Positions 20,332 through 50,230 of a stretch of 64,000 nt of DNA are shown here, in pieces. The notes beneath the pieces were generated by a model. The model had not been told where the DNA came from. It worked only from the letters and a program-made list of their open reading frames with translations, and searched no databases. A program made the position numbers and the translations under genes. This stretch comes from Bacteroidales bacterium (lineage in GTDB: Bacteria > Bacteroidota > Bacteroidia > Bacteroidales > UBA12077): positions 13,957 to 77,956 of the forward strand of contig JANQHR010000028.1 of assembly GCA_028282585.1 (NCBI GenBank), in the 5' to 3' direction. Positions within the stretch are counted from its first letter, which is position 1. Each line of letters opens with the position of its first letter.

Positions 20332-20343
20332 AGTATTTCAATT

Positions 20344-24959: not shown

Positions 24960-24962
24960 TTT

Positions 24963-33254: not shown

Positions 33255-33632
33255 CTAAACTTGTAATGATTGTGACGGCGGTCCACGAGTTTTACGTAAA
33301 CCCAGGTTAATTGAATTAGAAAAGATACATGGCTTACTTAACAATTCTAATTCAACATCTGCATTGAAGCGAAGATTTATAAAATTCTCAAAAGTTGTAT
33401 ATTGCTCAAATGAACTTAAGTAATCTAAGTCTATTCTATTGTGTCTATGCTTTGCAAGCGGATCATCTTTTTCCGCTCCTTTATCAAAAGGGTGTGCGTG
33501 AAAAATTATTTTTTCTGATTCAGTTTTGTGAGCATGAAGAAAGAATGTGGAATTAACAATAATTCCTCCCATTATTAATAGGAATAATGAAGTAATAATT
33601 CCCTTTCTAATATGCTTATCTCTTCCTTTCAT
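33255..33632 (-). CDS. Small N-terminally anchored protein with His motifs and C-terminal RGPPS motif; paralog-like to 21953-22360
   Basis: 125 aa. A TM helix is followed by FFLHAHK..IIFHAHPF..HRHNR. The protein ends ...LRKTRGPPSQSLQV. It sits directly upstream of the TonB-dependent receptor on the same strand. Confidence 0.55.
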   Translation of the reverse strand: MKGRDKHIRKGIITSLFLLIMGGIIVNSTFFLHAHKTESEKIIFHAHPFDKGAEKDDPLAKHRHNRIDLDYLSSFEQYTTFENFINLRFNADVELELLSKPCIFSNSINLGLRKTRGPPSQSLQV

Positions 33633-35158: not shown

Positions 35159-35165
35159 TTTCTAA

Positions 35166-36536: not shown

Positions 36537-36593
36537 TTCTTTTTGTATTAGTACATCAAAAATATTGTAGTTTAGTAATAGTTCAAAATTTGC

Positions 36594-36610
36594 TGTAGCA
36601 AAATGCTACA
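36594..36610. promoter_or_regulatory. Perfect 17-bp palindrome TGTAGC-N5-GCTACA (plus an extra GCTACA half-site at 36627-36632); candidate operator of RR2
   Basis: The geometry matches the TGTAAC-N5-GTTACA sites of module 1, with one base changed per half-site. It lies in the divergent RR2/permease-2 spacer. Confidence 0.55.
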
Positions 36611-36696
36611 CTTAGATAATCGAATTGCTACATTTAACTCTTAAATGAAAACACTTAATTCTCATAAAATTCTATTATTCAATTTATTATACTTTA

Positions 36697-36711
36697 TGGC
36701 ATCACTATTGG
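36697..36711 (+). promoter_or_regulatory. Candidate promoter element TGGCATCACTATTGG, starting exactly 47 nt upstream of the permease-2 ATG
   Basis: The spacing is canonical for sigma-54 (GG-N10-G), but the -12 reads TTGG rather than TTGC. Alternatively it overlaps the -33 region of a sigmaA-type promoter with a -7-like TAAATTTT. Confidence 0.35.
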
Positions 36712-36743
36712 TTAATAGTTTCAAAACCATTAAATTTTAATTT

Positions 36744-39155
36744 ATGTTTTGGAATCATTTTAAAATAAGCTTTAGAAAAATAATTAATGACAAAATTTTT
36801 TCTATTATAAAGATACTTGGCCTGGCAATTAGTATTGCGTGCAGTATACTTATATTCCAATGGGTAAGCAATGAACTTAGTTATGATAAATTTCATCCCG
36901 GTTATGAAAGAATTTACAGAGTGGTTGAAAGTATAGGCAGGGGGTCAAAAACAACCATGTATGCTCCTATTTGCGGACCGGCTGGTGCTGCAATAAAAGA
37001 AAAGTATCCTCAAGTAAAATACTCTGCCAGAACTTATGTAAGGGGAAATTGGTTATTTAAATACCAGGACAAATCATTTTATGAAAATAAAATGATAATA
37101 TCCGAACCTGATTTACTGAAAATATTTAAAATACCTTTAATTAAAGGCAATCCTGATGACGCTTTGGTAAAACCTAATACATTATTAATTACTGAAAGTA
37201 CTGTAAAGAAATACTTCGGGAATGAGGATCCTATAGGGAAAGTAATGAAAATTAATACAAATGAATATGAAATAACAGGAATCATTAAAGATAGTTACGA
37301 TAATTCCATTTTAGAATATGATTTTATTGCTTCATTGTCTACATGGAAAGATTGGGACCAACTCAATAATTGGTACAATACAATGTTTTTTACTTATATC
37401 AAACTTCTGCCCGATATAGATTTTGCAGCATTCGAAAAAGATATTGATACATTAGCATATCACTATATTGCTGATGATTTGAAAGAAAACGGTTATAATA
37501 TTAATTTTAAATTAGAACCAATTGCAGACGTACATTTAAATGAACCTTTACGATTAGATAAAAATACTCACGGTAATAAAATTTATATATACATATTCTC
37601 TATTATTGGAATATTTATTTTGATAATTGGAAGTGTAAACTTCATGAACCTTTCCACTTCTAAGAACATTAATAACTTTAAAGAAATAGCTATAAGAAAA
37701 ATAGTCGGCGGAACCAGAAAGTTTATTATTTCTCAGTTTCTCATCGAATCTGTAATATTAAGTTTCATTGCGCTTAATATTGCACTATATACTGTCGAGT
37801 TAATTCAAACCGCATTTAATAATCTTGTAGGAAAGGATTTAAATATAGAGTATTTTAGTAATTGGTGGATATTACCAGGCTTAATTATTTTCGGAATATT
37901 ATTAGGGATTTTATCAGGACTTTATCCCTCGATATATTTATCTATTGTGAAACCAGTTGACATTTTTAGAAATGAAAAAAGTAGAAATTCGATTAACTCG
38001 TATGTTCGAAAAGGACTAGTAATTATACAATTCGCAATATCAATTACATTAATTATTGCTTCATTCATTATTTATTTACAGGTAGATTATATGAAAAATC
38101 GTAATCTTGGTTTTAATAAATCAAATAAAGTTGTTTTACCGGTAAGAGGCGGAATTGATATAGAGCAAAATTATGAAGAGGTTAAAAGCGAATTTCTTTC
38201 TAACTCAAACATTACTAACGCCTCTGTATCTTCAAGTTCAATTGGGAATGATGTTAATAATTATGCGGCATCTTTGGACAATGAAAATGACAACAAATCT
38301 CAATCCATGTATTACATGCATATTGATGATAATTTTATTAAACAATTCGATATAGAGTTAATTGCCGGAAGAAACTTTAATAAAAATATAGTATCTGATA
38401 TTTCTTCATGGGATAACAGGGAAAATGGGTCCTTTATTTTAAACGAAGCTTCAGTTGAATCGTTTGGATGGTCTTCACCCGAAGAAGCAATTGGACAAGA
38501 GATTATTACAGGATTAGGTGGTCGTAAATTAAAGGTGGTAGGCGTGGTTAAGAACTTCCACTTTATGGGACTACAGAATAAAATTGAGCCTCTCATACTA
38601 GAGTTTTTTCCTGACCAGTTTAGAACTATAAATTTGAGTATTAATGAAGTCGATATTAAATCTTCTTTAAAGTTTATTGAAAATAAATGGAATGAACTTT
38701 ATCCTGAAAATCCTTTTGTATATTACTTTATTGATGAAGACTTTAACAGACATTATATTGAAGAAGTAAAAGCTGGTAAGCTTGTTAGCCTATTTACAGC
38801 TTTTGGAATATTTGTAGCTTGTTTAGGGTTATATGGACTAACTTTATATTCTGCAGAACAAAGAACCAAAGAAATTGGAATAAAAAAGGCATTGGGAGCT
38901 TCGGTGTATACTATTGTAATGAATATGTCAACTGGGTTTATATGGCTTGTAGTTTTATCAAATATTATAGCATGGCCATTAGTTTATTATTTCATGAATA
39001 AATGGCTGTCAAATTTCTCTTATAAAATTGATATGCCATATTGGATTTACGTTATATCTGGTTTATTAACTTTAATAATAGCCCAATTAACGATTAGTTT
39101 ACATGCAGTTATTGCTGCCAATAAAAATCCAGTTGAAGCTCTAAGGTATGAGTAA
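36744..39155 (+). CDS. MacB/FtsX-type ABC transporter permease, double-module (paralog 2); no ATPase gene adjacent
   Basis: 803 aa with the same architecture as 22450-24819. The C-terminus is ANKNPVEALRYE. Confidence 0.8.
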   Translation: MFWNHFKISFRKIINDKIFSIIKILGLAISIACSILIFQWVSNELSYDKFHPGYERIYRVVESIGRGSKTTMYAPICGPAGAAIKEKYPQVKYSARTYVRGNWLFKYQDKSFYENKMIISEPDLLKIFKIPLIKGNPDDALVKPNTLLITESTVKKYFGNEDPIGKVMKINTNEYEITGIIKDSYDNSILEYDFIASLSTWKDWDQLNNWYNTMFFTYIKLLPDIDFAAFEKDIDTLAYHYIADDLKENGYNINFKLEPIADVHLNEPLRLDKNTHGNKIYIYIFSIIGIFILIIGSVNFMNLSTSKNINNFKEIAIRKIVGGTRKFIISQFLIESVILSFIALNIALYTVELIQTAFNNLVGKDLNIEYFSNWWILPGLIIFGILLGILSGLYPSIYLSIVKPVDIFRNEKSRNSINSYVRKGLVIIQFAISITLIIASFIIYLQVDYMKNRNLGFNKSNKVVLPVRGGIDIEQNYEEVKSEFLSNSNITNASVSSSSIGNDVNNYAASLDNENDNKSQSMYYMHIDDNFIKQFDIELIAGRNFNKNIVSDISSWDNRENGSFILNEASVESFGWSSPEEAIGQEIITGLGGRKLKVVGVVKNFHFMGLQNKIEPLILEFFPDQFRTINLSINEVDIKSSLKFIENKWNELYPENPFVYYFIDEDFNRHYIEEVKAGKLVSLFTAFGIFVACLGLYGLTLYSAEQRTKEIGIKKALGASVYTIVMNMSTGFIWLVVLSNIIAWPLVYYFMNKWLSNFSYKIDMPYWIYVISGLLTLIIAQLTISLHAVIAANKNPVEALRYE

Positions 39156-39156
39156 T

Positions 39157-39188
39157 AAAAAAGGGTTGATTAATTTCAACCCTTTTCA
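39157..39188. terminator. Bidirectional intrinsic terminator between the convergent permease-2 and AOR-1 genes
   Basis: The stem is aagggttga/tcaaccctt with a 6-nt loop. An A-run lies before it and a T-run after it. Confidence 0.75.
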
Positions 39189-39206
39189 AATTTCATTTAT
39201 ATGATC

Positions 39207-41360
39207 TTATTGAAGATCTTTTACAGTTTCAACCAATTCAGGAAGATCCATTCCTAAATCTTTTAAGTGCTCAACTTTTGGAACACCATTTGAAGTCCAA
39301 CCACGACGCTTGTAAACTGCATCTAATAGTTTTTCGTATTGATCTTCTCTGTGTTTTCTTGTGGCATCCATTTTTTCTTCGATAGACATATTCACAGGAT
39401 CAACCCCGATGATCTCTTTTAATTGTTTATCGTAATGTTCTGCTTTTGATTCGTATTCAGCAGTTGTAACAGGACCTGCTGCACGATACGGTTGAGCATC
39501 GTCTTTACGTAAACCGTAACCACGACGGATATTGAATATACGTTGGAAGTTATAAACTCTTTCCGATTGACGAATCATTTCGTGCTTATCAAAATCTAAG
39601 CCCGTAACAGCTTTGAAAACAGTCACATAATTATCAACATGCTCAGGTACTTTAGCCGGCTCATCAGTTTCTGCATTGTTTTCCGGCTCAACATCGTTCC
39701 AAGGAAGTTTACATAACCCAACTAAACCAAACCAGGTACGGAACATTGGGAAATAATGTAATGCTTCAGCCTTATCCTCGAATGTCGGAATTTGGTTATT
39801 TACCATATCCATGAAAATTAACCAGGCCTCATCATGTTGTGGTCCTTTGTTTGTCATTGCATAACCACCTTGCTGAGCTAATGATTCTTTAGAAACGTAC
39901 TGAGAATATTCTAAACCCTTATTCTCCATACCTATATCTTTCATAAAATTAGCATCTCCCCAGCCTTTTTCAGCAAACATTTCTTTCATTTTACGAACAC
40001 CTTGACCAGCTGTTAAGCCAAAACCTTCGCCACGGCCCATTTGGTGTAAAACTTCCATTGCAGCATCCGCATTACCAAAGTTTAATTTTAAACCACCGGT
40101 TCTTTCCTCGTTCAAGATACCATTTTCATAACATTCCATTACAAAACCCATGATTGTACCATAAGTAATGGTACAAATACCATAAGTATCGCAGTAGAAG
40201 TTAGATTCGATAGTAAAATCAGGATTAAATATACCCATGATCGAACCATTCGATGAAGTTGTTTCATACTCAGGCCCATCCACGATAACTTTATCCCCTG
40301 CATAAGGTCCGGTCCTTAATTCATAATTATCTACACCCTTAGCACATGACATATTACAGCCAATCCAACAACCATCAGGTACACCTTGGGTAAAATATGA
40401 TTTCCACACATCTCCATGAATCTTGTCAGCATCTTTATGATGTCCGTACTGAAAGTTATTTACCGGTAATAAGTCATAGTCATTCATGATGTTAGTAAGG
40501 TGAGCAGTACCTTTACTTTTCATTTCACATTGTTGGTCATCAAGCTCACGCATTTCTTTGTTGAATCTCTTACCACGTTCCATGATAGAGCTCATATCAA
40601 CAACATTGTTTAAGTTGCCTTTTACTCCAGGAATCTTACAAACCAATGCTTTGATTTTTTTGTCTCTGAAAACAGATCCGATACCACCACGACCTGCTTG
40701 CTTTAAGCGAACAAGTTTACGTTTGTTATCCCAGAAAGTGAAGTTTAACATACCGATTAAGGTATGGTCAGCAGCTGTACCAGCCGAAACAACAGAAACA
40801 TTTTTTCTGTCTTTTTCATCATCTGAGTACATTTCATGTAATACTTCACCTAAAACATGACTATCAATTGGCTCCTCCGGAGCTTCTAATATTTCAACTT
40901 TACCGTTTACACCATCAAGAAAAACAATAACTTCTTTATCAGCCTTACCTTGAATTTCAACAGCATCAAATCCGGCAAACTTTGAGAATGGGCCGAAGAA
41001 ACCGCCTACATTTGAATCCATTACAGAATCAGTTTGCGGAGATATAGATACTACTAAGGCTTTACCAGTCCCTGAATATTGAGTAATACCACAAATTGGC
41101 CCACCTGCAATTATAATTTCGTTTTCAGGATCATTCCATTTTGTTTCTTTAGTTGTTGCATCCCATAAAAGTCTTAAACCATATCCTTTACCCCCAATGA
41201 ATTTTTCTTTCATTTGTTGAGATACAGCTTTTTCTTTAATTTCATTTGATCCAACGTTTACATATAACGTACGGTCATTATAACCCTTCTCAATAGGGCG
41301 AAGCTCATATTTCCACTCTGTAATAAGCTTATGAGCCGCTTTCATTTTTTGAATATCCAT
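39207..41360 (-). CDS. aor: Aldehyde:ferredoxin oxidoreductase family (tungsto-/molybdo-pyranopterin, 4Fe-4S) enzyme, long ~717-aa form, paralog 1
   Basis: The N-terminal AOR domain carries ...GGKGYGLRLLWD.... Other motifs are the cluster motif CWIGCNMSCAKG, the pterin motifs DGPEYET and CDTYGIC, FGLVGLCK, and the C-terminal ...RRGWTSNGVP.... Confidence 0.85.
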   Translation of the reverse strand: MDIQKMKAAHKLITEWKYELRPIEKGYNDRTLYVNVGSNEIKEKAVSQQMKEKFIGGKGYGLRLLWDATTKETKWNDPENEIIIAGGPICGITQYSGTGKALVVSISPQTDSVMDSNVGGFFGPFSKFAGFDAVEIQGKADKEVIVFLDGVNGKVEILEAPEEPIDSHVLGEVLHEMYSDDEKDRKNVSVVSAGTAADHTLIGMLNFTFWDNKRKLVRLKQAGRGGIGSVFRDKKIKALVCKIPGVKGNLNNVVDMSSIMERGKRFNKEMRELDDQQCEMKSKGTAHLTNIMNDYDLLPVNNFQYGHHKDADKIHGDVWKSYFTQGVPDGCWIGCNMSCAKGVDNYELRTGPYAGDKVIVDGPEYETTSSNGSIMGIFNPDFTIESNFYCDTYGICTITYGTIMGFVMECYENGILNEERTGGLKLNFGNADAAMEVLHQMGRGEGFGLTAGQGVRKMKEMFAEKGWGDANFMKDIGMENKGLEYSQYVSKESLAQQGGYAMTNKGPQHDEAWLIFMDMVNNQIPTFEDKAEALHYFPMFRTWFGLVGLCKLPWNDVEPENNAETDEPAKVPEHVDNYVTVFKAVTGLDFDKHEMIRQSERVYNFQRIFNIRRGYGLRKDDAQPYRAAGPVTTAEYESKAEHYDKQLKEIIGVDPVNMSIEEKMDATRKHREDQYEKLLDAVYKRRGWTSNGVPKVEHLKDLGMDLPELVETVKDLQ

Positions 41361-41430
41361 ATCTAATTTTCCTTTTAGTTTATTTCTTCAATTGCTTTTC
41401 AAAATTATAAAATTACATTCTGCGTTGAAA

Positions 41431-41472
41431 GTATAATATGACTTAAATCAATATGTTATATTGTGCATATCG
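41431..41472 (-). promoter_or_regulatory. Conserved 42-nt upstream element of AOR-1 (38/42 identical to 44813-44854); candidate activator/operator site adjoining the core promoter
   Basis: The sense strand reads CGATATGCACAATATAACATATTGATTTAAGTCATATTATAC and contains the inverted repeat CAATAT-N3-ATATTG. It ends 70 nt upstream of the ATG. A -7-type box TAATTTTG lies at 41400-41407. Confidence 0.6.
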
Positions 41473-41482
41473 CTTATTTTGT

Positions 41483-41513
41483 AAAAAAGCGCTCTTTTAT
41501 TACAATAAGAGCC
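41483..41513 (-). terminator. Rho-independent terminator ending the thiF-thiS-like transcription unit, upstream of the AOR-1 promoter
   Basis: On the minus strand, GCTCTT-N10-AAGAGC is followed by GCTTTTTT. Confidence 0.7.
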
Positions 41514-41751
41514 TAAAATTGTCCAGATTTCAAAGGAATGACAAGTGATGAAGATTTAATAGTATAAATGCAATATTATTATAAAAGAAGAAGTTAAAGC
41601 TCAAGGAAATATCTGAACTACCAACCTCCTACTTTTAGTTTTTTATGATTGATATAATAATCAATGTATTATTTTTCCCTGTATTTTCTGGTAACAACAA
41701 CTTTTTCCTTAATTGATCTGCATACCCTATCGATACTCCTTCTCATGAAGA

Positions 41752-41955
41752 TTACCCACCTGCAAGAAGGTGTAAAACAACAACAATATCGTTTTCATTT
41801 AAGATTGTGGAATCATATTCGTGTGGCTCCACAATTTTATTATTAACCTTAACGATAATCTTTTTGTATGTAAAATTCTTGATTTTCATTAACTCCCCCA
41901 TTGTCATGCTTGTGCATTCAAATGATTCAGGTCTATTATTTAAAGTAATCTTCAT
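41752..41955 (-). CDS. ThiS/MoaD-like beta-grasp sulfur-carrier/Ubl protein ending in GG (copy A)
   Basis: 67 aa, MKITLNNRPE...VVVLHLLAGG. It starts 10 nt after the ThiF-like gene. No thiamine genes are nearby. Confidence 0.75.
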   Translation of the reverse strand: MKITLNNRPESFECTSMTMGELMKIKNFTYKKIIVKVNNKIVEPHEYDSTILNENDIVVVLHLLAGG

Positions 41956-41964
41956 TTTACAAAT

Positions 41965-42543
41965 TTATTTTAACAAGATTTCTAAAGCAACATTTGCCTG
42001 CATATTTGAAACAATTCCAATACGTGGAGCCAATGGTGGATTTTCATCCGAAACTTCTGATACTTGATCTCCACAAATTATTAAATTATCGTACCTGGTT
42101 TCTTTGAGAGAATTATTTTGCCCCCAACCCGACATTCCTATACCCATAATGAGCGTTTTATCAGGAAAGAACTTGCTCATTGCACGAACAATCATTTCTT
42201 TTGATTCCGGTCTATCAAATGCTTCAATTACTAAATCACATTCCTTGAATAATTCTTCAAAATTTGATTCGTTAATAAAAACATTATGACTAATTACTTC
42301 AATATCTTTATTTATTCTTCCAATATTCTCTTTTAAAGTATCTGATTTTACTTTACCAATCTGATCCCAAAAATAATATTGTCTGTTCAAATTAGATTCT
42401 TCGATTTTATCAAAGTCGGCAATTATTAATTTACCGGTTCCTACCCTTGCTAATGCAACTGCACAATTAGAACCCAAACCTCCACAGCCTGCAATTCCTA
42501 CAGTTTTTGTTTTTAGTTTCTCTTTAATTTCCTGAAAATTCAT
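41965..42543 (-). CDS. Short ThiF/MoeB/HesA-family E1-like adenylyltransferase (adenylation domain only, 'ThiF family 2' type), copy A
   Basis: 192 aa with VGIAGCGGLGSNCAVALARVG, the FD..E.SNLNRQ motif and ..PPLAPRIG. It has no CxxC zinc motifs and no rhodanese domain. Confidence 0.8.
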   Translation of the reverse strand: MNFQEIKEKLKTKTVGIAGCGGLGSNCAVALARVGTGKLIIADFDKIEESNLNRQYYFWDQIGKVKSDTLKENIGRINKDIEVISHNVFINESNFEELFKECDLVIEAFDRPESKEMIVRAMSKFFPDKTLIMGIGMSGWGQNNSLKETRYDNLIICGDQVSEVSDENPPLAPRIGIVSNMQANVALEILLK

Positions 42544-42552
42544 AACGAGAAG

Positions 42553-42580
42553 TAAAAAAAGCCCTTTTTACAGGGCTTTT
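42553..42580 (-). terminator. Intrinsic terminator between AOR-2 and the ThiF-like gene
   Basis: On the minus strand, the 9-bp stem AAAAGCCCT/AGGGCTTTT with a 6-nt loop is followed by a run of 7 T. It ends only ~10 nt before the thiF-like ATG. Confidence 0.7.
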
Positions 42581-42586
42581 GAGTTG

Positions 42587-44743
42587 TTATTGTAAAGGCT
42601 TAATTATTTCAATTAGTTCCGGAAGATCCATTCCAATTTCTTTTAGGTGTTCTATTTTTGGAACTCCATTGTTGGTCCAGCCTCTTCTTTCATAAACGGC
42701 ATCAAGCAATTTTTCATACTGTTCTTCTCTGTATTTTCTTGTAATTGCAACTTTTTCCTCAGTTGATTTACCTTTTGGATCAACTCCAATGATATCTTTC
42801 ATTTGACCATCGTAACGTTCTGCTCTCGATTCGTACTCTTCATTAGTTACAGGTCCTGCAGCACGATACGGTTGAGCATCATGTTTACGTAAACCATAAC
42901 CACGACGGATATTAAAAATACGTTGGAAGTTATAAACTCGTTCAGACTGACGGATTAAACCAGCTTCGTTAAGTGGATTACCAGTAACACCTTCGTAAAC
43001 TGCCAGGTAGTTTCTTAAGTGCTTAGGTATTTTATGAGGTTCTTCTTCAAACTTATTGTCTTCAGGAGTAACATCATTCCATACGATTTTACATAATCCT
43101 TGCAACCCAAACCATGTTCTGAACATTGGGAACCAGTGAAGCGCATCGGCTTTATTTTCAAATGTAGGAATTTGATTATTTACCATATCCATAAAGATAA
43201 GCCATGCTTCATCATGCTGTGGCCCTTTGTTTGTCATTGCATAACCACCCTGTTGAGCAAGCGATTCTTTAGAAACATATTGAGAGTACTCAAGTCCTTT
43301 ATTTTCCATACCAATATCATTTAAGAAATCAGCATCTGCACCATACTCTTCAATGAAAAGTTTCTTCATTTGACGAACACCTGTTCCGGCTACTTTACCA
43401 AACCCTTCCCCTCTTGCAAGTTGATGTAATAATTCTAATGAAGCTTCAACATTACCAAAGTTAAGTTCTAGTCCGCCAGTAATTTCTTTATTGATAATTC
43501 CGTTTTCGTAACATTCCATTATAAAGGCAACAATAGTTCCCCATGTAATTGTACAAATACCATAAGTATCACAATAGAAATTAGCTTCTATAATAGGATG
43601 GTAATCAAAAATACCAATGTTAGAGCCTAAACCGGCAGCTGTTTCGTATTCTGGTCCGTCAACAATCACTTTAGTTCCTTTATAAGGTCCTGTTCTTAGT
43701 TCAAATTCATCAGCTCCTTTTGCACATTGCATAGCACATCCAATCCAACATGCATCGTTAACACCTAGTGTAAACCATTTATCTCTTAGAAAATCAGAGT
43801 GGATTTTAGGAGCATCATCATGAGTTCCATATTTGAAGTTATGCGTAGGAAGCAAATCATAATCGGCCATTACGTTTACGATATTTGCTGTTCCTTTTTT
43901 CTTCATTTGATTTTGCTTATCGTCAAGATCACGCATCTCGCCAGCATAGTCACGGCCCACTTTCGTGATCATATCCATATTAGCAACATTGTTAAGATTT
44001 CCTTTTACTCCGGAAGTTCTTGCAACAATGGCTTTAATATTTTTATTACGGAAAACTGTTCCAATACCACCTCTACCTGCTTGCTTTAAACGTACCATCT
44101 TACGTTTGTTATCCCAGAATGTAAAATTAAGCATTCCGATAAGCGAGTTTTCTGCAGCAGCACCAGCAGAAACGATACCAATGTTTTTAGCGTCTTTTTC
44201 ATCTTCCGCAAATAATTCAGTAAGTTCTTCACCTAAAATGTGAGAATCAACTGCAAAACCTGGGTCATCATAAATTTCTACTTTATGATTTACACCATCA
44301 AGATATATGATGACATCTTTATCAGCTTTACCTTGTAGCTCAAGAGCATCAAAACCAGCAAACTTCATAAATGGACCGAAGAATCCACCTACATTTGAAT
44401 CCATTATAGAATCCGTTTGAGGAGAAATAGAAACTAGTAATGATTTTCCGGCACCTGAATATTGCGTAATCCCTCCAATTGGGCCGGGAGAAATGATAAT
44501 TTCATTTTCAGGATCATCCCACTTTGTATCTGGTGTTGTTGCGTCCCAAAGTAATCTTAATCCAAAACCTTTTCCTCCAACAAATTTATCTTTCATTTCC
44601 TGAGAAACCGGTTTTTCACTTACTTCTTTGCTTCCAACATTAATGTATAACGTACGATTATTATATCCTTTCTCAATCGGATGCCAATCGTAACTCCACT
44701 CTTTTAGCAGTTTTTGTTCTGCTTTAAGCTTTTGAATATCCAT
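42587..44743 (-). CDS. aor: Aldehyde:ferredoxin oxidoreductase family enzyme, long ~718-aa form, paralog 2
   Basis: It has the same motif set as paralog 1 (CWIGCAMQCAKG, DGPEYET, CDTYGIC, FGLQGLCK). By eye it is roughly three quarters identical to paralog 1. Confidence 0.85.
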   Translation of the reverse strand: MDIQKLKAEQKLLKEWSYDWHPIEKGYNNRTLYINVGSKEVSEKPVSQEMKDKFVGGKGFGLRLLWDATTPDTKWDDPENEIIISPGPIGGITQYSGAGKSLLVSISPQTDSIMDSNVGGFFGPFMKFAGFDALELQGKADKDVIIYLDGVNHKVEIYDDPGFAVDSHILGEELTELFAEDEKDAKNIGIVSAGAAAENSLIGMLNFTFWDNKRKMVRLKQAGRGGIGTVFRNKNIKAIVARTSGVKGNLNNVANMDMITKVGRDYAGEMRDLDDKQNQMKKKGTANIVNVMADYDLLPTHNFKYGTHDDAPKIHSDFLRDKWFTLGVNDACWIGCAMQCAKGADEFELRTGPYKGTKVIVDGPEYETAAGLGSNIGIFDYHPIIEANFYCDTYGICTITWGTIVAFIMECYENGIINKEITGGLELNFGNVEASLELLHQLARGEGFGKVAGTGVRQMKKLFIEEYGADADFLNDIGMENKGLEYSQYVSKESLAQQGGYAMTNKGPQHDEAWLIFMDMVNNQIPTFENKADALHWFPMFRTWFGLQGLCKIVWNDVTPEDNKFEEEPHKIPKHLRNYLAVYEGVTGNPLNEAGLIRQSERVYNFQRIFNIRRGYGLRKHDAQPYRAAGPVTNEEYESRAERYDGQMKDIIGVDPKGKSTEEKVAITRKYREEQYEKLLDAVYERRGWTNNGVPKIEHLKEIGMDLPELIEIIKPLQ

Positions 44744-44812
44744 GTTTATCTTTCTTAAAATTTATTTCGAGTTTATCATTTCAAAAATATAAAAATATAG
44801 CGCGCAAGTAAG

Positions 44813-44854
44813 GTATAAAATGACTAATATCAATATGTTATATTATGCATATCG
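44813..44854 (-). promoter_or_regulatory. Conserved 42-nt upstream element of AOR-2 (38/42 identical to 41431-41472), in the divergent spacer shared with the DUF364 operon
   Basis: The sense strand reads CGATATGCATAATATAACATATTGATATTAGTCATTTTATAC. It ends 69 nt upstream of the ATG. A -7-type box TATTTTTG lies at 44782-44789, and the opposite-strand -7 box TAAATTTG lies at 44931-44938. Confidence 0.6.
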
Positions 44855-44961
44855 AGGTAGACTAACAAACTTTATTAAACGTATTTGAATATGAGCATTT
44901 TAATATACATACTGATTTCATTTTTAATAGTAAATTTGCACTTGAATAAATACGAAAAAAC

Positions 44962-45663
44962 GTGCAAGAACCATTAGAATATTTTTTCAAAAAATATGGA
45001 ATTGATTTTAAAAGTATTGCTAGAATTGTTTGTGGTGAAACGTATGTCGCAGTAGTTCTAAAAAATGGTAAAATTGGTGTCTGTGCTACATTGAATCATT
45101 ACGTTAACATTAACATTCAAGATTTAAGGATTCCTGATTTACAAAACATTCAACATCGTATTGCTTTGAATGCTTATTATAACGCGGCATTTAATTATCA
45201 AAATCAATATGATACTACGATTGACATATTTGACAAAATTGATTTTAAAAAATATACTAAAATAGTAATGATCGGTTTTTTTCGATCGTTAGTTGAAAAA
45301 TTCGAAAAAGACAAGATAGATCTAACGATTTTTGATAAGGCTGCTGAGGATGAAAAATTAACTGATATGGATAATCAACTTAAAGAGGTAACTAAAGCTG
45401 ATGCTTTAATTTTATCATCAACCACAGTATTTAACAACACTTTCCTGGATTTGGTTGATGCAACAAAAGACGGATGCGATATATACACACTTGGCCCTTC
45501 GACCATATTACAAACAGAAATGTTTCAATATCGAAATATTAAATTATTATTTGGTGCTATCTTTGGTCCTAATGATGTAAATACATTAAAGATTGTCCGA
45601 CAGGGTGGCGGAACTAAACAGTTCTTACCATTTATGGATAAAGTTTTTCTGAATAACAAATAA
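44962..45663 (+). CDS. DUF4213/DUF364-like protein (putative heavy-metal/cofactor chelation Rossmann-like fold); GTG start
   Basis: 233 aa. The N-terminus reads ..CGETYVAVVLKNGKIGVCATL.. and the Rossmann-like segment reads KIVMIGFFRSLV...LTIFD. No in-frame ATG lies nearby, so the start is uncertain. Confidence 0.6.
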   Translation: MQEPLEYFFKKYGIDFKSIARIVCGETYVAVVLKNGKIGVCATLNHYVNINIQDLRIPDLQNIQHRIALNAYYNAAFNYQNQYDTTIDIFDKIDFKKYTKIVMIGFFRSLVEKFEKDKIDLTIFDKAAEDEKLTDMDNQLKEVTKADALILSSTTVFNNTFLDLVDATKDGCDIYTLGPSTILQTEMFQYRNIKLLFGAIFGPNDVNTLKIVRQGGGTKQFLPFMDKVFLNNK

Positions 45664-45682
45664 AATCTAAAAACTGTCGCTC

Positions 45683-45772
45683 TTCGACTCCCGATGTTAC
45701 GGGCAGTGTGACAATTTATAATAAATTTCATATTGAGCCTGACCGCTATCTGGTAGGCTTGTTGAAATATGA
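45683..45772 (+). repeat. Interspersed intergenic repeat, copy B (between the DUF364 and thiF-like genes)
   Basis: It shares the blocks gactcccgatgttacgggcagtgtgaca and tcatattgagc..(hairpin agcct/aggct insert)..ttgttgaaatatga with the reverse complement of copy A at 29491-29569. Confidence 0.6.
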
Positions 45773-45784
45773 TACATTTAAAAT

Positions 45785-46372
45785 ATGATCATGACTTTTG
45801 ACGAAATAAAATCAAAACTTAAAAACTATACCGTGGGAATTGCCGGCGCTGGCGGACTAGGTTCAAATTGTGCCGTAGCACTTACCAGGGTTGGAATTGG
45901 AAAACTAGTTATTTCAGATTTTGATGTTGTTAACGAGTCGAACCTGAATCGCCAATATTTTTTTAGAGATCAGTTAGGGCAAAAAAAGGTTGAAGCACTT
46001 AAAGAAAATATTATCAGAATAAACCGTGAAGTCGAAATTATTACCCGGGATGTTAAACTAAATGAAAATAATATTGTTGCAATTTATAAAGATTGTGATA
46101 TACTAGTTGAAGCTTTTGACCTAGCTGAGATGAAAAAAATGCTAATTGAAACATTTCTTTCTGAGTTACCAGAAAAAAAGATCGTGTTAGGTTTAGGTAT
46201 GGCTGGCTGGGGCAATAGCAATTTGATAAAATTCAGGCAATCTGAAAATTTATATATTTGCGGCGACGAAAAATCGGAAATTGCTGATGATAATCCACCA
46301 TTAGCACCAAGAGTTGGAATGGTAGCAAATATGCAAGCAAATACGGTTTTAGAATTATTATTAAGAAGGTAA
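45785..46372 (+). CDS. Short ThiF/MoeB/HesA-family E1-like adenylyltransferase, copy B
   Basis: 195 aa with VGIAGAGGLGSNCAVALTRVG, FD..NESNLNRQ and PPLAPRVG. By eye it is a bit over half identical to copy A. Confidence 0.8.
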   Translation: MIMTFDEIKSKLKNYTVGIAGAGGLGSNCAVALTRVGIGKLVISDFDVVNESNLNRQYFFRDQLGQKKVEALKENIIRINREVEIITRDVKLNENNIVAIYKDCDILVEAFDLAEMKKMLIETFLSELPEKKIVLGLGMAGWGNSNLIKFRQSENLYICGDEKSEIADDNPPLAPRVGMVANMQANTVLELLLRR

Positions 46373-46374
46373 AA

Positions 46375-46578
46375 ATGAAAATAACATTAAATAACAGACC
46401 TGAACTATTTGACTTTAAAAAAATAACCGTTACAAAACTGTTAGAACATAAGAATTATACTTTTAAAATGTTGGTAATAAAAGTTAATGGTAAGCTTGTA
46501 AAAAAAGATGCTTATGATAGCTTTGAATTAAATGATGGTGATGATGTTACAGTACTTCATTTAGTAAGTGGCGGATAA
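46375..46578 (+). CDS. ThiS/MoaD-like GG-terminated beta-grasp protein (copy B)
   Basis: 67 aa, MKITLNNRPE...VTVLHLVSGG. It starts 3 nt after the ThiF-like stop. Confidence 0.75.
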   Translation: MKITLNNRPELFDFKKITVTKLLEHKNYTFKMLVIKVNGKLVKKDAYDSFELNDGDDVTVLHLVSGG

Positions 46579-46580
46579 AA

Positions 46581-46681
46581 TGATTTCAGATTACAGATTA
46601 CAAATTTCAGGTTTTAGGTTACAAATTTAAAATGCACTTATCAACAAAGATCTGAAACCTCAAACCTGAAACCTTAAATCA
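46581..46681. repeat. ~100-nt imperfect hairpin whose arms are built from 7-nt periodic units
   Basis: The left arm reads cagatta cagatta caaattt caggttt taggtta. The right arm reads tgaaacc tcaaacc tgaaacc ttaaatc. The core pairing tttcaggttttaggtt (46605-46620) with aacctcaaacctgaaa (46656-46671) matches at 15/16. Confidence 0.5.
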
Positions 46682-46750
46682 ACAGATAATTGTTAATACT
46701 TTCCTGTTTTATTTTTTTGTTACACTTTCAATTTCTTTTAATATTGTAGC

Positions 46751-47062
46751 ATGAGCTCAGCCGTTAAAATATGGAAAAAAATTTTGCCATTTGTTAAAAA
46801 CAAATTCATTCTTACTTTTATCATTTTTATGACCTGGCTTTTATTTTTTGATAGAAATAATCTAATTGACAGGGCAAAAGAATTACGGTATCTTAAACAA
46901 CTAGAAAAAGATAAAAAATACTACATAGAGCGAATTGATAAAGACTCCAAGCGATTGGAACAACTCAAAACAGACAACAAGAATCTTGAAAAATTTGCCA
47001 GAGAGCAATATTTAATGAAAAAAGATGATGAGGAGATTTTTGTTATTGTTGAGGAAGATTAA
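46751..47062 (+). CDS. FtsB/DivIC-type septum formation initiator family protein
   Basis: 103 aa. It has a single TM helix, then a coiled coil (LKQLEKDKKYYIERI...), then ..FAREQYLMKKDDEEIFVI. Confidence 0.7.
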   Translation: MSSAVKIWKKILPFVKNKFILTFIIFMTWLLFFDRNNLIDRAKELRYLKQLEKDKKYYIERIDKDSKRLEQLKTDNKNLEKFAREQYLMKKDDEEIFVIVEED

Positions 47063-48324
47063 AACTTACGTTCTAAACTTCTATATAATTCTAAATATCT
47101 TTTATAATTTTTCTCATCGGGTTTAATATTCTCTATTCTTTCCAATAGTTTTTCTGCTTCCCCGAGCAAAGGTCTTTTTACATAGATATTCTCATGGGCA
47201 AAATTTAAAAACTTAAGAACTTTAAAAGCATCAAACCAATTGTAAAAACGTTTAATAAAAGTTTTAATATTTGAGCTATTCTTATTTATTTCATTTAAGG
47301 CTTCACTTATCTTATTCTCAACAAGAAACTTCGAAATACAATTTGGTAATTCTTTGATAATTTCTTCTGATTCAGATGTCTCTGCTTTAAAAAGATATTT
47401 AACTCTTGAAAATAAATCTCGTAATTCAAGAAAGGCATCAAAGTCATATGTAAGAAACTCCTTGGTTTTTGATTCAATGATTAATTTTATCATTGGTCCT
47501 GTTCCAAACGGAACTCGGTCCGATATTCGAGAAGAAGGAATAACACGTGTGGTATTTATTTCATAAGAGTTTCCCAGAGGAAAAACTTTATGTAAAAAAT
47601 AAAAATCCTCACCAGCTTGTTTTCTGTTCATTCCCCCCTGTTTTACGTAAGCATTAGCTCTAACCGCAAAACAAGAACCAACCGTATAATATGAATATGG
47701 GAAACATGTATGTGCTAAAGAAAGCTTATAGTAACGCATATACAACTCATAAATCGCCGCTGCATTATAAATATTCTCATTAAATTCATTTCCTTCAACA
47801 GGATGCTCAAAATAAGTTGTAACCACATTTGTTTTTGGATACTTGGCAAAATGTTTTTCCAGTTCTGTAAAGTAATTTGATTTAACCTCCGAATCTGCAT
47901 CCAACGAAATAATAATACCATTGTCTTTATTGAGCTCACTAAATCGGGCAATTGCCTGATCCATTCCAATTTTACGAGCCAATCCGGCGCCTGCAAATTT
48001 CCTTGGTAAATCTTTTTCATGGATTATAAAAAAACGTAATGAAGAATCTTCATTTTCGTGAATCCAATTCTTCGTCTTATTTAATGTTTTTATATTTTGA
48101 TCCAATATCTCTTTTCCTGAATCTTCAGATGAATTTATTATTATTAAAATCTCTATCGAAGATTTAATTTTATTACAGTTCCTTAAAGAATAAAGTGTTT
48201 TGATAAGATTGAACTCGTTAAAACAGGGAATTACAACAATATATTTAAGGTCAGGAAATGGTTTTGCTTGAATTTTTATTTTAAAATTCTTTTGTTTATC
48301 CAAATAAACATCTGCAAAACTCAT
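47059..48324 (-). CDS. Family 2 glycosyltransferase with C-terminal extension
   Basis: 421 aa. It has VVIPCFNE near the N-terminus and a DxD-like LDADS motif. Its stop overlaps the ftsB-like stop within TTAA. Confidence 0.7.
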   Translation of the reverse strand: MSFADVYLDKQKNFKIKIQAKPFPDLKYIVVIPCFNEFNLIKTLYSLRNCNKIKSSIEILIIINSSEDSGKEILDQNIKTLNKTKNWIHENEDSSLRFFIIHEKDLPRKFAGAGLARKIGMDQAIARFSELNKDNGIIISLDADSEVKSNYFTELEKHFAKYPKTNVVTTYFEHPVEGNEFNENIYNAAAIYELYMRYYKLSLAHTCFPYSYYTVGSCFAVRANAYVKQGGMNRKQAGEDFYFLHKVFPLGNSYEINTTRVIPSSRISDRVPFGTGPMIKLIIESKTKEFLTYDFDAFLELRDLFSRVKYLFKAETSESEEIIKELPNCISKFLVENKISEALNEINKNSSNIKTFIKRFYNWFDAFKVLKFLNFAHENIYVKRPLLGEAEKLLERIENIKPDEKNYKRYLELYRSLERKF

Positions 48325-48416
48325 AATTATTTATTCAATTGGGAGATTTGTTAATGACAAAAATGTTACTATTATTATTTATTCAATTGTCATTCGCTTT
48401 ACAATTCAATTGATAT

Positions 48417-48448
48417 AAAAAAATGCCTAAAATCAAATTTAAGGCATT
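48417..48448 (-). terminator. Rho-independent terminator after the OmpH gene
   Basis: On the minus strand, AATGCCT-N13-AGGCATT is followed by a T-run. Confidence 0.7.
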
Positions 48449-48471
48449 TATAAGTATAAAGTATTAAAATA

Positions 48472-49077
48472 TTATTCCCCAGACTTATCGTACTTTTGAT
48501 TCAATCCTTCAAGTACATCCATAGTAATATTTAAACTTTTATCTGTATAAAGTAACTGTCCACCGAATGAATTGCTAAATATATATCTGTAATTATATTC
48601 AGTGTTATATTCTTCTAAATAGTCCATAACCTCATTTAGTACCTGACGATACATCACTTGCTCTTCTTCAGCTAATTGCATTGCCAGATTATCTCTTGTT
48701 GCATATAACTGTTGTTCTTTCTGAGCAAGCTCTTGTTGTAGCATCTGTGCCTTTGTTCGTGTAACTAACCCTTTGTTAACTTTATCCTGAAAATCACGAA
48801 CTTCATTCTCAAAATTTCTTGATTGAATTTGTAATTCAGCTTCGGATTCATTTCTTTTTTGGGTTAACTCATCACTTTTATCAATGAATAAGTTATAATT
48901 ACGCACTAATGTATCAATGTTTACATAAGCAATAGCATAATCTCTGTCGATAATTTGTTCCGTTCCATCCGCACTAACTTCCTTTTTAGTTGTTTTACTT
49001 CCTGAAAAATGTAAATAATAAATCCCTGCCACAGCTAAAATTAAAACAACATTTAACACAAGAGATACTTTCTTCAT
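48472..49077 (-). CDS. OmpH/Skp-family periplasmic chaperone
   Basis: 201 aa with a signal/anchor helix and a long Q/E/K-rich coiled region (LQQELAQKEQQL...). Confidence 0.75.
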   Translation of the reverse strand: MKKVSLVLNVVLILAVAGIYYLHFSGSKTTKKEVSADGTEQIIDRDYAIAYVNIDTLVRNYNLFIDKSDELTQKRNESEAELQIQSRNFENEVRDFQDKVNKGLVTRTKAQMLQQELAQKEQQLYATRDNLAMQLAEEEQVMYRQVLNEVMDYLEEYNTEYNYRYIFSNSFGGQLLYTDKSLNITMDVLEGLNQKYDKSGE

Positions 49078-49225
49078 AGTTTAAAAATTTAATTTTTATT
49101 AATCATATTTTAAAAAAGCAAATATAAACGAATATCAAACATCTTAAAAGAATTTTAATTTTTTTTATGATTTAAGGCTAACAAATTGATCTTATGGAAG
49201 AAGACTTTATTGGAAATATCTTTGC

Positions 49226-50230
49226 CTATAAAGTTGGACAAGGAATAATTTTTCTCTTTTCTCGTTTAGTTACGCCCTGATTAAATAAATATGTTATTGA
49301 AATTTCATGGGCTCCACCTGTAAAACCAACTAACTTTGAAATGGTCAAATCATAACTATATCCAATACTAAACTGATCTACTTTAAATCCCAGTAAAAAT
49401 GCTAATGCATCATTACTTGCAAGTTCCTTAAATACAGGAATTCCCCGATACCATAAGCCTATAACTAATGGCATCTGGTACCAGTATACGCCTAAATCTA
49501 ACTGTGTATATTTATCCTGTATTTTAAATAAAAATGAGGGTGAAAGACTCTGTCCGCTGGCCCAATTATATCTGTCAAAAATATTGAGCCTAGTTCCTCC
49601 GTAAAATGAAAATTTCCATGGATCCTGCATTACTTCACCAGTTAATGATCTATTTGGTTTAAGAATTCTATCCCAGGTAAATCCAAACCATAGGTTCTTA
49701 TTAAATGCCAACGTAGAAAATGAAGCATCAATATCGGCTTTTTTTCCTAATATATCCTGTTCGATCGTAGGCGTACCGGAATCAAGTTCGTCATAAAATT
49801 CTAACGATGTAAAATCGATATTTCTTTGAGTATAGTAAAAACTTAATCCGGGACTTATACGCCATCCACTTCTAAATCTAAACTTATAAGAATATGCAAT
49901 GCCAATATTAGTTGTTGCCAAAACACTCGCTCCTGCTTGCTCTCTGAATAAAATTAAACCAACTCCGCTTTTTAAATGAGGGAAATAGTGGTCATATCCG
50001 AGTGAGTATGTTTGAAAAGACTTAGAAATTGATGGCCATTGATTTCGATAATTTATATTTATACGATCTCCATCTGTTGAACCGGCAAAAGATGGAGCCA
50101 AGAATAAAGGACTAGCATAAAATTGTGAAAACTGAGTATCTTGCGAATAACCAGCTTCTACTATAATAAAAAATAGTATAAGGAATATAAAATATATTCT
50201 TTTCACGATTGTTAGCTTTCTTTCTTTCAA
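49226..50230 (-). CDS. PorP/SprF-family type IX secretion system membrane protein
   Basis: 334 aa. After the signal peptide it has the family-typical QDTQFSQFYASPLFLAPSFAG. It is beta-barrel-like and lies immediately downstream of a type-B-CTD giant protein. Confidence 0.85.
   Translation of the reverse strand: MKERKLTIVKRIYFIFLILFFIIVEAGYSQDTQFSQFYASPLFLAPSFAGSTDGDRININYRNQWPSISKSFQTYSLGYDHYFPHLKSGVGLILFREQAGASVLATTNIGIAYSYKFRFRSGWRISPGLSFYYTQRNIDFTSLEFYDELDSGTPTIEQDILGKKADIDASFSTLAFNKNLWFGFTWDRILKPNRSLTGEVMQDPWKFSFYGGTRLNIFDRYNWASGQSLSPSFLFKIQDKYTQLDLGVYWYQMPLVIGLWYRGIPVFKELASNDALAFLLGFKVDQFSIGYSYDLTISKLVGFTGGAHEISITYLFNQGVTKREKRKIIPCPTL

Follow-up and report, generated by a model that had tools for sequence, protein, structure and literature searches.

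Gene content of the locus

We analyzed a seven-gene locus in a 64-kb stretch of a Bacteroidales contig (JANQHR010000028.1; hereafter the window, numbered from its first nucleotide), in which two genes for oxidoreductases of the AOR/WOR family lie among two gene pairs, each encoding a short E1-like protein (ThiF) and a ubiquitin-like protein (Ubl) of the sulfur-carrier type (ThiS), and a gene for a DUF364/DUF4213 protein. The minus strand carries the AOR/WOR large subunits AORa (39207..41360, 717 aa; clade A of the Bacteroidota 718-aa group) and AORb (42587..44743, 718 aa; clade B) and, between them, ThiS1 (41752..41955, 67 aa) and ThiF1 (41965..42543, 192 aa). The plus strand carries the DUF364/DUF4213 gene (44962..45663, 233 aa), which leads an operon with ThiF2 (45785..46372, 195 aa) and ThiS2 (46375..46578, 67 aa), the latter starting 2 nt past the ThiF2 stop. 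Both ThiF proteins consist of the adenylation domain only, and both ThiS proteins are beta-grasp sulfur carriers with a C-terminal GG. The paralogs within the window are 71% (AOR), 57% (ThiF) and 52% (ThiS) identical. A preliminary description of the window had listed the same seven open reading frames (ORFs), and every coordinate and length was reproduced in our ORF list.

Searches with Pfam and NCBIfam profiles upheld the family assignments of that description (AOR, short ThiF, ThiS and DUF364). All seven proteins scored above the Pfam gathering scores, with E-values of 1e-45 to 1e-98 for AFOR_N and AFOR_C, 1e-33 for ThiF, 1e-9 to 1e-10 for ThiS, and 1e-19 and 5e-5 for DUF364 (PF04016; 70.6 bits, gathering score 23) and DUF4213 (PF13938; 24.1 bits, gathering score 23.5). 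ThiF1 and ThiF2 cleared PRK08644 with 243 and 259 bits (cut-off 159) and TIGR02354 (thiF_fam2) with 188 and 201 bits (cut-off 152), and ThiS1 and ThiS2 cleared TIGR01683 (thiS) with 44 and 49 bits (cut-off 37.45). With the MoeB models the two E1s reached 71-84 bits, below every cut-off (266-449), and moaD_arch matched ThiS2 only, at 22.6 bits against a cut-off of 49.5, which leaves the Ubls of the window below the MoaD cut-offs. The E1 adenylation motifs were all kept (G21/G23/G24/G26, NLNRQ at 53-57, K68 and EAFD at 109-112).

The rest of the window was searched with Pfam for the other ORFs of at least 90 aa, apart from two giant ORFs for type IX secretion system (T9SS) cargo at 50358-63023, and with phmmer for every ORF of at least 40 aa, using E. 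coli Thi/Moa/Moe queries and proteins of relatives. These searches detected no thiG, thiH, thiC, thiE, moaA, moaC, moaD, moaE or moeA, no rhodanese or desulfurase, and no transporter gene for the tungstate/molybdenum-cofactor (Moco) set in the 64 kb. The absence of thiamine and Moco genes and of a visible sulfur donor, as first described, thus held under the renewed search.

The AOR enzymes

Both AOR proteins contained the two Pfam domains of the family, AFOR_N (PF02730; 154 bits for AORa and 159 for AORb) and AFOR_C (PF01314; 329 and 313 bits), and the motifs previously pointed out (CWIGC..C, DGPEYET, CDTYGIC and FGL.GLCK) were found in both translations. When AORb was aligned to 1AOR with HMMER, its C-x3-C-x3-C motif matched Cys288/291/295, and the fourth cysteine of the cluster was placed by the FGLxGLC motif alone. 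The second-shell residues of Pyrococcus furiosus AOR (PfAOR) were all conserved in AORb, with KGTA at Thr243, GPEYE at Glu313, SQY at Tyr427 and PQH at His448; reviews name these four residues as the hallmark of the aldehyde-oxidizing members (including PMC13328260). For AORa, the cysteine cluster and the KGTA and GPEYE motifs were read from the translation and assigned through the AORb alignment and the 71% identity. Neither AOR passed any of the curated AOR equivalogs, with 98 bits against 868 for YdhV (PRK09849) and 48 against 1300 for the archaeal GAPOR (NF040818). More than 8000 database proteins matched AORb, and the 718-aa form occurred at 70-98% identity across metagenome-assembled genomes (MAGs) of Bacteroidales, Marinilabiliales, Tenuifilaceae and Lentimicrobium. 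The closest solved structures to AORb were P. furiosus AOR (E = 5e-53) and A. aromaticum AorB, and classical AORs of ~600 aa borne on plasmids or chromids had at most 28% identity to the window AOR.

No gene for a Fer4 protein, a polyferredoxin (WorS) or a FAD/flavoprotein subunit adjoins AORa or AORb, and AORa and AORb are therefore Class I WORs in the classification of 2026 (PMC13328260). A ThiS-like gene, with or without thiF, next to worL marks the Class I WOR/WorX type, and such a gene lies at this locus. The supplementary neighborhood table of that study places the Bacteroidetes and Lentimicrobium WorL in group "7", with the neighbors PF02597-PF00899-PF04016/PF13938 (PMC13328260). If this column is read as a clade number, the ~718-aa AOR clade probably corresponds to clade 7 in the scheme of 92 clades. 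We predict that the window AORs are single-subunit, ferredoxin-type tungsten aldehyde oxidoreductases, with tungsten suggested by the WtpA/Moco context of their orthologues.

Linkage of AOR, ThiF and ThiS in relatives

A scan for AOR relatives with one genome per species yielded 80 loci, all from Bacteroidota MAGs, at 69-90% identity. ORFs were called in these loci, and the neighbors of AOR were determined by phmmer with the window proteins and, separately, by unsupervised clustering. ThiF and ThiS were found beside AOR in ~38 of the 80 loci by phmmer, so that the neighborhood, whose co-occurrence had been proposed as a check in the preliminary description, proved to be conserved. Clustering ranked ThiF (32) and ThiS (29) ahead of a 93-aa Ppnp-like protein (15), a 125-aa family (14), DivIC (13) and DUF364 (12). 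The commonest layout had ThiS, ThiF and optionally DUF364 on one strand, divergent from AOR on the other (ThiS<-ThiF<-(DUF364), ->AOR). ThiF homologues of just 60% identity still adjoined AOR genes for 716-720 aa, on contigs labelled Clostridia and Chlorobi; the contig labelled Clostridia carries a T9SS Por_Secre_tail gene. Since ThiF and ThiS were the top neighbors in 80 genomes and the seven-gene layout recurs on an independent contig, the AOR-ThiF-ThiS arrangement is far beyond chance.

In three of the loci (L032, L053 and L037 in our numbering), where the genes were named by Pfam and NCBIfam, AOR is followed downstream by genes for a Ppnp-like protein, a ModE-N-like helix-turn-helix (HTH) protein, WtpA, a permease, a WtpC-like ATPase, MoeA, MoaA, MoaC and MoaB. 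The WtpA proteins of relatives scored 282/326 bits with TIGR03730 (cut-off 243). Queries from E. coli matched MoeA in 10, MoaA in 8, MoaC in 8 and MoaB in 9 of the 80 AOR loci, and those for MoaD and MoaE gave no match in these loci. The extra ORFs of the islands were considered as candidates for MoaE or MoaD and turned out to encode a pyrophosphatase, an HD-domain protein, OMP beta-barrels and Ppnp. The joint presence of tungstate-uptake and Moco genes indicates that the AOR-ThiF-ThiS unit belongs to a tungstate-uptake/pyranopterin island, and since the islands hold neither MoaD nor MoeB, ThiS and ThiF occupy the slot expected for these two proteins.

Three further features of the islands were recorded. 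The Ppnp/YaiE-like cupin (93 aa; PF06865, "pyrimidine/purine nucleoside phosphorylase") lies directly downstream of AOR in 15 of the 80 loci, as at L032 8844-9125 and L053 13743-14030, between AOR and the tungstate-transport/Moco operon. The cofactor operons of some relatives encode MoaB/Mog fused to MOSC, a predicted sulfur-carrier domain, and that of L037 also holds an inorganic pyrophosphatase gene (these features span L032 14572-15510 and L037 19840-20799 and 19232-19858). The MOSC fusion and the pyrophosphatase may assist in adenylation and sulfur transfer.

AOR-linked and thiamine-linked pairs differ in context and sequence

ThiG, ThiC and ThiE queries from E. coli had no match in the 80 AOR loci, and the same queries detected ThiG/H/E/C in control thiamine operons with thiF_fam2 on Fusobacteriota replicons. 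A second sample, obtained by a metagenome scan seeded with a Fusobacterium thiamine ThiF, provided 80 further loci. Over all loci, ThiF lay beside AOR in 43 cases and beside ThiG/ThiH in 55, and truly beside both in none. An apparent overlap of AOR and thiamine genes in L032 was discarded; the 476-aa ThiH-like match there is probably HydG by its size, and ThiG, ThiC and ThiE do not occur at that locus.

In a neighbor-joining tree of modest resolution, 39 AOR-linked and five context-free ThiF proteins formed a clade without thiamine-linked members, and 47 thiamine-linked ThiF formed the main other clade. ThiF1 and ThiF2 were 42-93% and 47-84% identical, respectively, to AOR-linked ThiF and 35-47% identical to thiamine-linked ThiF, and ThiS1 had 34-94% identity to AOR-linked ThiS and 15-31% to ThiS of thiamine operons. 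Between the two contexts, ThiS proteins were 15-33% identical and had distinct consensus sequences. About 20 positions separate AOR-linked from thiamine ThiF, the adenylation motifs being common to both, and the C-terminal GG was present in 43/43 AOR-linked ThiS. One replicon of Cetobacterium somerae carries an AOR-MoaD/ThiS-ThiF cluster together with a separate thiS-thiG-thiH-thiF-thiE operon. Because of the split in context, the separate clades, the diagnostic positions, the divergence of ThiS, the island and the separate operons of C. somerae, a thiamine role of the pairs is unlikely. This agrees with the initial view that they serve the AOR context and not thiamine, since they form AOR-specific subclades and are never beside thiG/H/C/E.

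In ThiF2 numbering, thiF_fam2 proteins of thiamine operons have Cys180 (92%) and His183 (96%), where the AOR-linked clade has Val180 and Met183; the AOR-linked clade has conserved Cys29 and Cys104 instead. An equivalence of the thiamine-type Cys180 with Cys184 of E. coli ThiF, by which its loss would be MoeB-like, was unsupported by the alignment and was dropped.

Two modules in tandem

The preliminary description had taken the two pairs for a duplicated cassette. Our comparison points instead to two anciently diverged modules that now stand in tandem. With few exceptions, ThiF2-type pairs lay upstream of AOR in divergent orientation (33 loci), and they accompanied every DUF364 gene but one. 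ThiF1-type pairs were co-directional with and downstream of an AORb-type gene in 6 of 8 loci, and the ThiF1 homologues of 60-94% identity followed an AORb-type gene in the same orientation. The AOR tree had two deep clades, with AORa in one and AORb in the other. AORa grouped with the AOR of L056, whose gene order is PorP-OmpH-GT2-DivIC-ThiS-ThiF-DUF364 | AOR and whose flank is the right flank of the window (46751-50230); in L056 and L074 the AORa orthologue directly adjoins DUF364-ThiF-ThiS. AORb grouped with L002 and L087, the nearest relatives from outside the lineage, both of which have AOR->ThiF->ThiS alone. The two deep clades with their different gene orders ruled out a recent local duplication and indicate that each AOR lineage brought its own E1/Ubl pair.

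By its gene order and phylogeny, the locus is read as an ancestral, divergent module, DUF364-ThiF2-ThiS2 | AORa, that was split between DUF364 and AORa by the entry of a second module, AORb-ThiF1-ThiS1. Such an insertion answers the puzzle, raised at the outset, of two diverged pairs for two AORs. The full seven-gene layout was also found on an independent 1.7-Mb JGI metagenome contig and on a second contig, and L003 has a derived form, DUF364 | AORb-ThiS-AORa.

A candidate operator common to the AOR promoters

The upstream regions of AORa and AORb are homologous over ~110 nt, and each holds the sequence CGATATGCAyAATATAACATATTGA, a predicted palindromic operator. The first copy (CGATATGCACAATATAACATATTGA; 41448..41472, minus strand) lies 88 nt upstream of the AORa start, and the second (CGATATGCATAATATAACATATTGA; 44830..44854, minus strand) lies in the divergent intergenic region of AORb and DUF364, 87 nt from AORb and 107 nt from DUF364. 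The pattern CGWTATG-N10-CATAYYGA occurred 76 times in the 1.25 Mb of the 80 loci; 40 of the 79 related AOR genes and 5 of the 14 genes encoding the 125-aa family were preceded by it, with only 7 other sites. This family has the N-terminal domain of ModE, with HTH_1; it reached 74 bits with TIGR00637 (below the cut-off of 98.5) and has no Mop/TOBE domain. Its gene heads the WtpABC-MoeA-MoaA-MoaC-MoaB operon in relatives (L037 12906-13283, L053 14098-14493, L066 9102-9473 and L081 12658-13029) and was not found within the window. Because one palindrome precedes both the AOR genes and the gene of the ModE-N-like regulator, we infer a candidate tungstate- or molybdate-responsive regulon, which would include the AOR genes and, through the divergent intergenic region, DUF364-ThiF2-ThiS2.

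Other control elements were also considered. A terminator-like hairpin with a T-run (42557..42580, minus strand; a consensus match only) lies between AORb and ThiF1 and is a possible attenuation point. A Moco or tungsten-cofactor (Tuco) riboswitch was rejected, as no Rfam family reached threshold window-wide and nothing relevant appeared at E <= 1 in 39000-47200. A sigma-70 scan gave fewer matches than shuffled sequences and carries no information for Bacteroidota; visual inspection showed a TAnnTTTG box ~40 nt before AORa and ~23 nt before DUF364. Sigma-54 control by nearby NtrC-type regulators was likewise rejected, since no TGGCAC-N5-TTGCW-like site lies upstream of AOR or DUF364 and the count in the window was not above that in shuffles. 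The window has a duplicated module of an FtsX/MacB-type permease (~790-800 aa), a sigma-54 response regulator and a histidine kinase (22450-27645 and 33809-39155), and one copy directly flanks AORa.

The DUF364 protein

A search of PDB with the single DUF364 sequence gave no match, and a profile of 13 orthologues matched 3NPG, a DUF364 protein, with E = 1.2e-8. DUF364 lay beside 11 of 41 AOR-linked ThiF genes and 0 of 55 thiamine-linked ones (p = 3.6e-5). The earlier suggestion of DUF364 as a partner in this system is supported in that it was seen with AOR-linked pairs only. In several relatives DUF364 overlaps ThiF by 4 nt, which indicates that DUF364-ThiF-ThiS form one operon. We regard DUF364 as an accessory of the ancestral module that is not always present, perhaps with a function in metal or pterin handling. 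In the AOR cluster of C. somerae, thiF is followed by a 250-aa gene, which was checked and is not DUF364.

DUF364 genes have repeatedly been linked to molybdate/tungstate transporters (PMC2954201), and the DUF364 gene MMP_RS02675 of M. maripaludis is tied to the modABC operon. Another member, Streptomyces Orf5 (MeAZE synthase), is an S-adenosylmethionine (SAM)-cyclizing enzyme of secondary metabolism. The DUF364-ThiF-ThiS/AOR layout is not discussed in the cited papers, though it is visible in the supplementary neighborhood table of PMC13328260.

Other features of the window

Two tandem paralogous trios on the minus strand (5028-14506) encode a NuoE-like protein (2Fe-2S thioredoxin-like), a NuoF-like protein (FMN/NADH) and a formate-dehydrogenase-like molybdopterin oxidoreductase with an N-terminal Fer2_4 domain, of the kind found in HydABC/Bfu-type NAD(/Fd)-linked enzymes. 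With them, the window would contain a further set of duplicated Mo/W-pyranopterin enzymes, and no AOR-type operator lies upstream of these trios. Two small His-rich ORFs on the minus strand (21953-22360 and 33255-33632; 135 and 125 aa), without a Pfam match and with "RGPPS" near the C-terminus, may encode metal-binding proteins; one adjoins an RND efflux operon (OEP-AcrB-HlyD, 16074-21864) and the other a gene for a TonB-dependent receptor. The giant ORFs at 50358-63023 are divergent, encode 2179 and 2023 aa and are of the PKD/CHU_C type in the matching contig; PorP/SprF and OmpH genes lie near them, and a Por_Secre_tail protein is encoded at 77-2107. The giant ORFs and the Por_Secre_tail protein are cargo of type IX secretion, which confirms a Bacteroidota host.

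Discussion

We propose, with a probability of roughly 55%, that the locus is the Bacteroidota version of the known maturation cluster of an AOR/WOR with a Ubl sulfur carrier and an E1, and that its pairs feed sulfur to the tungsten (W)-pyranopterin cofactor. Gene content, linkage and conserved motifs are what was observed, and each mechanistic step is a proposal built on them. ThiF would adenylate the C-terminal glycine of ThiS, and the adenylate would be converted to ThiS-thiocarboxylate by a persulfide donor encoded elsewhere, for which the candidates are a cysteine desulfurase and the MOSC domain that some relatives carry on MoaB. The sulfur of the thiocarboxylate would then pass to the pyranopterin dithiolene and so into the W-bis-pyranopterin cofactor of the adjoining AOR, the ThiF/ThiS pair taking the role of MoaD/MoeB. 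Expression would probably be tied to tungstate supply through the operator common to both AOR promoters, DUF364-ThiF2-ThiS2 and the regulator gene of relatives. The idea of a dedicated sulfur-carrier system for the AORs, put forward in the preliminary description, is retained in this form on the strength of the AOR linkage, the island and the operator; its parts on a duplication and on Ubl conjugation are given up.

Several points weigh against this proposal. The window searches found no sulfur donor, and how a ThiS-type protein would dock on or work with MoaE is a weak point; MoaE was found neither in the window nor in the 80 + 80 loci or the ~10 tungsten islands with MoeA-MoaA-MoaC-MoaB. The curated hidden Markov models (HMMs) place the window pairs with thiamine ThiF/ThiS and not with MoeB/MoaD. 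The phylogeny, which had been called for as a check, sets the AOR-linked ThiF apart from the main thiamine clade, but its internodes are short, the exact AOR-linked clade has a bootstrap of 38/100, and two Fusobacteriota thiamine ThiF and four odd AOR-linked ThiF lie near the base of the group. Within 10 kb of about half of the related AOR genes no ThiF/ThiS is present, the linkage being frequent and not obligatory in cis. Clade 7 is without a characterized member (PMC13328260). Finally, the evidence from the host genome is that of the 64-kb window, and thi and moa genes were compared over loci rather than whole genomes.

The sulfur might instead be used at a late, enzyme-specific step, in which ThiS-thiocarboxylate (WorX-like) gives a terminal sulfido ligand to W, or ThiS escorts or inserts the cofactor on apo-AOR. 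Each AOR module has its own pair, as such a step would suggest. Sulfide activates some AOR-family enzymes. The fusion of MoaD to the AOR C-terminus in Azoarcus suggests physical contact (PMC1779556), the authors of the Thermococcus kodakarensis study infer a mechanism that makes Ubls enzyme-specific (PMC11323500), and the tungsten islands of relatives have no MoaE. However, known AOR structures need no protein-delivered sulfido ligand, and reviews describe oxo/hydroxo or water ligands; an escort would not call for an E1, and half of the AOR genes of the clade are without a pair nearby. We consider a late step of this kind rather doubtful. It is unlikely that the pairs are ordinary thiamine thiazole ThiF/ThiS that merely lie beside AOR or serve thiamine and the cofactor alike. 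They do pass the equivalog cut-offs (PRK08644, TIGR02354 and TIGR01683), public records call their homologues "ThiS adenylyltransferase ThiF", other thiF_fam2 members lie in thiS-thiF-thiG-thiH operons, and one E1 serves several pathways in Thermus and Thermococcus (PMC11323500). Yet 0/43 AOR-linked pairs were beside thiG/H/C/E (L032 apart) and 0/55 thiamine-linked pairs beside AOR, the subclades are separate with their ~20 diagnostic positions, the operator and the island are held in common with tungstate-uptake and Moco genes, and C. somerae keeps its AOR-linked and thiamine pairs apart.

Two proposals give DUF364 a larger part, and we regard both as quite improbable. DUF364, ThiF and ThiS might make a sulfur-containing small molecule, a thiocarboxylate or thio-metallophore (cf. 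PDTC/quinolobactin), that binds or selects tungstate. ThiS/E1 pairs make thiocarboxylate siderophores in Pseudomonas (PMC1779556), DUF364 is tied to molybdate/tungstate transporters (PMC2954201; M. maripaludis modABC), one DUF364 enzyme is a SAM-cyclizing enzyme of secondary metabolism, and in relatives DUF364-ThiF-ThiS overlap by 4 nt, with DUF364 confined to AOR-linked pairs. Against this, DUF364 accompanies only ~1/4 of the AOR-linked pairs and is missing from pair 1 of the window, and neither the window nor the islands of relatives contain an acid-CoA ligase, JAB or other scaffold-building gene. The other proposal joins DUF364 and the AOR-linked thiF_fam2/ThiS into a tungsten-specific maturation branch that bypasses MoaD/MoaE/MoeB, with DUF364 as a pyranopterin-thiolating or a tungstate-chelating or -selecting enzyme under minimal ModE-N-type control; were it true, it would help to explain why W rather than molybdenum is loaded into AOR enzymes. 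A Ubl protein-conjugation (SAMPylation-like) or defence system modifying AOR or other targets appears most improbable. The GG-ended Ubls and the E1 are in keeping with it, sulfur carriage and protein conjugation are combined in archaeal SAMPs and in the T. kodakarensis Ubls (PMC11323500), and the E1s partially match the Cap2-type E1-E2 profiles of PADLOC. However, the PADLOC and NCBIfam matches cover the Rossmann adenylation part only, at 55-74 bits (cut-offs 320 for Cap2 and 450 for UbaA), no E2, JAB/deubiquitinase or effector gene was found in the window or relatives, and the neighbors are metabolic and cofactor genes. The conjugation alternative of the preliminary description was abandoned on these grounds, as was an anti-phage reading, for which PADLOC gave partial E1 matches only.

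Sulfur delivery to the tungsten cofactor, as proposed here, bears on the role of the WorX gene and on how W rather than molybdenum is routed into AOR enzymes. It would mean that Bacteroidota have solved the same cofactor problem with parts of the thiamine-type ThiF/ThiS lineage, predicted to be co-regulated with WtpABC and Moco genes. In anaerobic Bacteroidota, thousands of genes that databases list as "ThiS adenylyltransferase ThiF" or "thiamine biosynthesis protein ThiF" probably serve cofactor maturation and not thiamine synthesis. DUF364 gains a concrete, testable set of partners, and the operator with the ModE-N-like regulator is a candidate tungsten regulon, none having been described for Bacteroidota in the cited literature. 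The main worth of the locus lies in this correction of annotation and in the leads it offers for experiments on WorX, DUF364 and the regulation by tungsten.

Comparison with known systems

The locus is real, conserved and mostly explained, and it belongs to a documented cluster type with lineage-specific twists. In 2006, Iyer, Burroughs and Aravind reported a mobile tungsten-cofactor cluster in which AOR is "strictly adjacent" to MoaD and often accompanied by MoeB (PMC1779556), in line with the mention in the preliminary description of MoaD/MoeB-like genes beside some bacterial aor operons. ThiS-family genes beside AOR were noted in archaea in 2010, aorD/aorE of A. aromaticum have been called putative maturation factors, T. 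kodakarensis Ubl mutants lose molybdopterin (MPT) and AOR/FOR activity (PMC11323500), and in 2026 the ThiS-like neighbor of WOR received the name WorX and was placed, together with thiF, in the processing of the pterin cofactor (PMC13328260). The combination of AOR/WOR, Ubl and E1 is thus already known; this locus departs from the earlier cases in the lineage of its parts, in DUF364, in the operator and in having two modules stacked.

The locus shares with the WorX/WOR clusters (PMC1779556; CsWOR87 of Cetobacterium somerae, PMC13328260) a single-subunit AOR/WOR with a GG-ended beta-grasp protein and an E1, a predicted role in the pyranopterin cofactor and a position apart from the thiamine operon. 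The Ubls of Cetobacterium, Peptoclostridium and Azospirillum are moaD_arch/SAMP1-like, whereas those of the window are of the ThiS type; the Cetobacterium E1 is MoeB/ThiF-family-1-like, with 26% identity to ThiF2, whereas those of the window are of the thiF_fam2 type. The window AORs have at most 28% identity to theirs and are ~110 aa longer, and DUF364, the ModE-type operator and the two stacked modules are additions. With ThiF family 2/ThiS of thiamine thiS-thiF-thiG-thiH operons the pairs have in common the HMM families, an E1 of ~190-200 aa, a GG-ended Ubl of 66-70 aa and the adenylation motifs, but the window pairs are never beside thiG/H/C/E and identities are 35-47% for ThiF and 15-33% for ThiS. 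Compared with E. coli MoaD-MoeB-MoaE, the proposed chemistry would be the same, from E1 adenylation through the thiocarboxylate to the dithiolene sulfur, with a GG-ended Ubl and intact adenylation motifs; E. coli MoeB outscores E. coli ThiF on both window E1s, and the best PDB match of ThiF2 is MoeB 1JW9. The window E1s are nonetheless without the C-terminal Zn-binding part of MoeB, and no MoaE was found in the window or related loci.

The sole experimental evidence for a contribution of Ubls to the MPT/W-cofactor and to AOR/FOR activity comes from T. kodakarensis, where UblC (TK1065) adjoins AOR (TK1066) and UblB (TK2118) lies with the E1 (TK2117) (PMC11323500). That system is archaeal, its AOR-linked Ubl is of the MoaD type, one E1 serves three Ubls, and the Ubls also conjugate to proteins. 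The known members of the DUF364 family (Dhaf4260 3L5O, 3NPG, MMP_RS02675 and Orf5) resemble the protein of the window in having both Pfam domains and in the tie to Mo/W uptake genes, which in relatives of the window is the WtpABC island; here, however, the gene is in an operon with ThiF-ThiS, divergent from AOR. The candidate regulon recalls the ModE/molybdate regulon of Proteobacteria, where a palindrome of the CG-TAT...ATA-CG type likewise precedes a transporter/Moco operon and a cofactor-dependent enzyme and the regulator has the ModE N-terminal HTH. It differs in that the operator is a predicted one and in that the regulator of the relatives has ~125 aa, is without Mop/TOBE and scores below the TIGR00637 cut-off.

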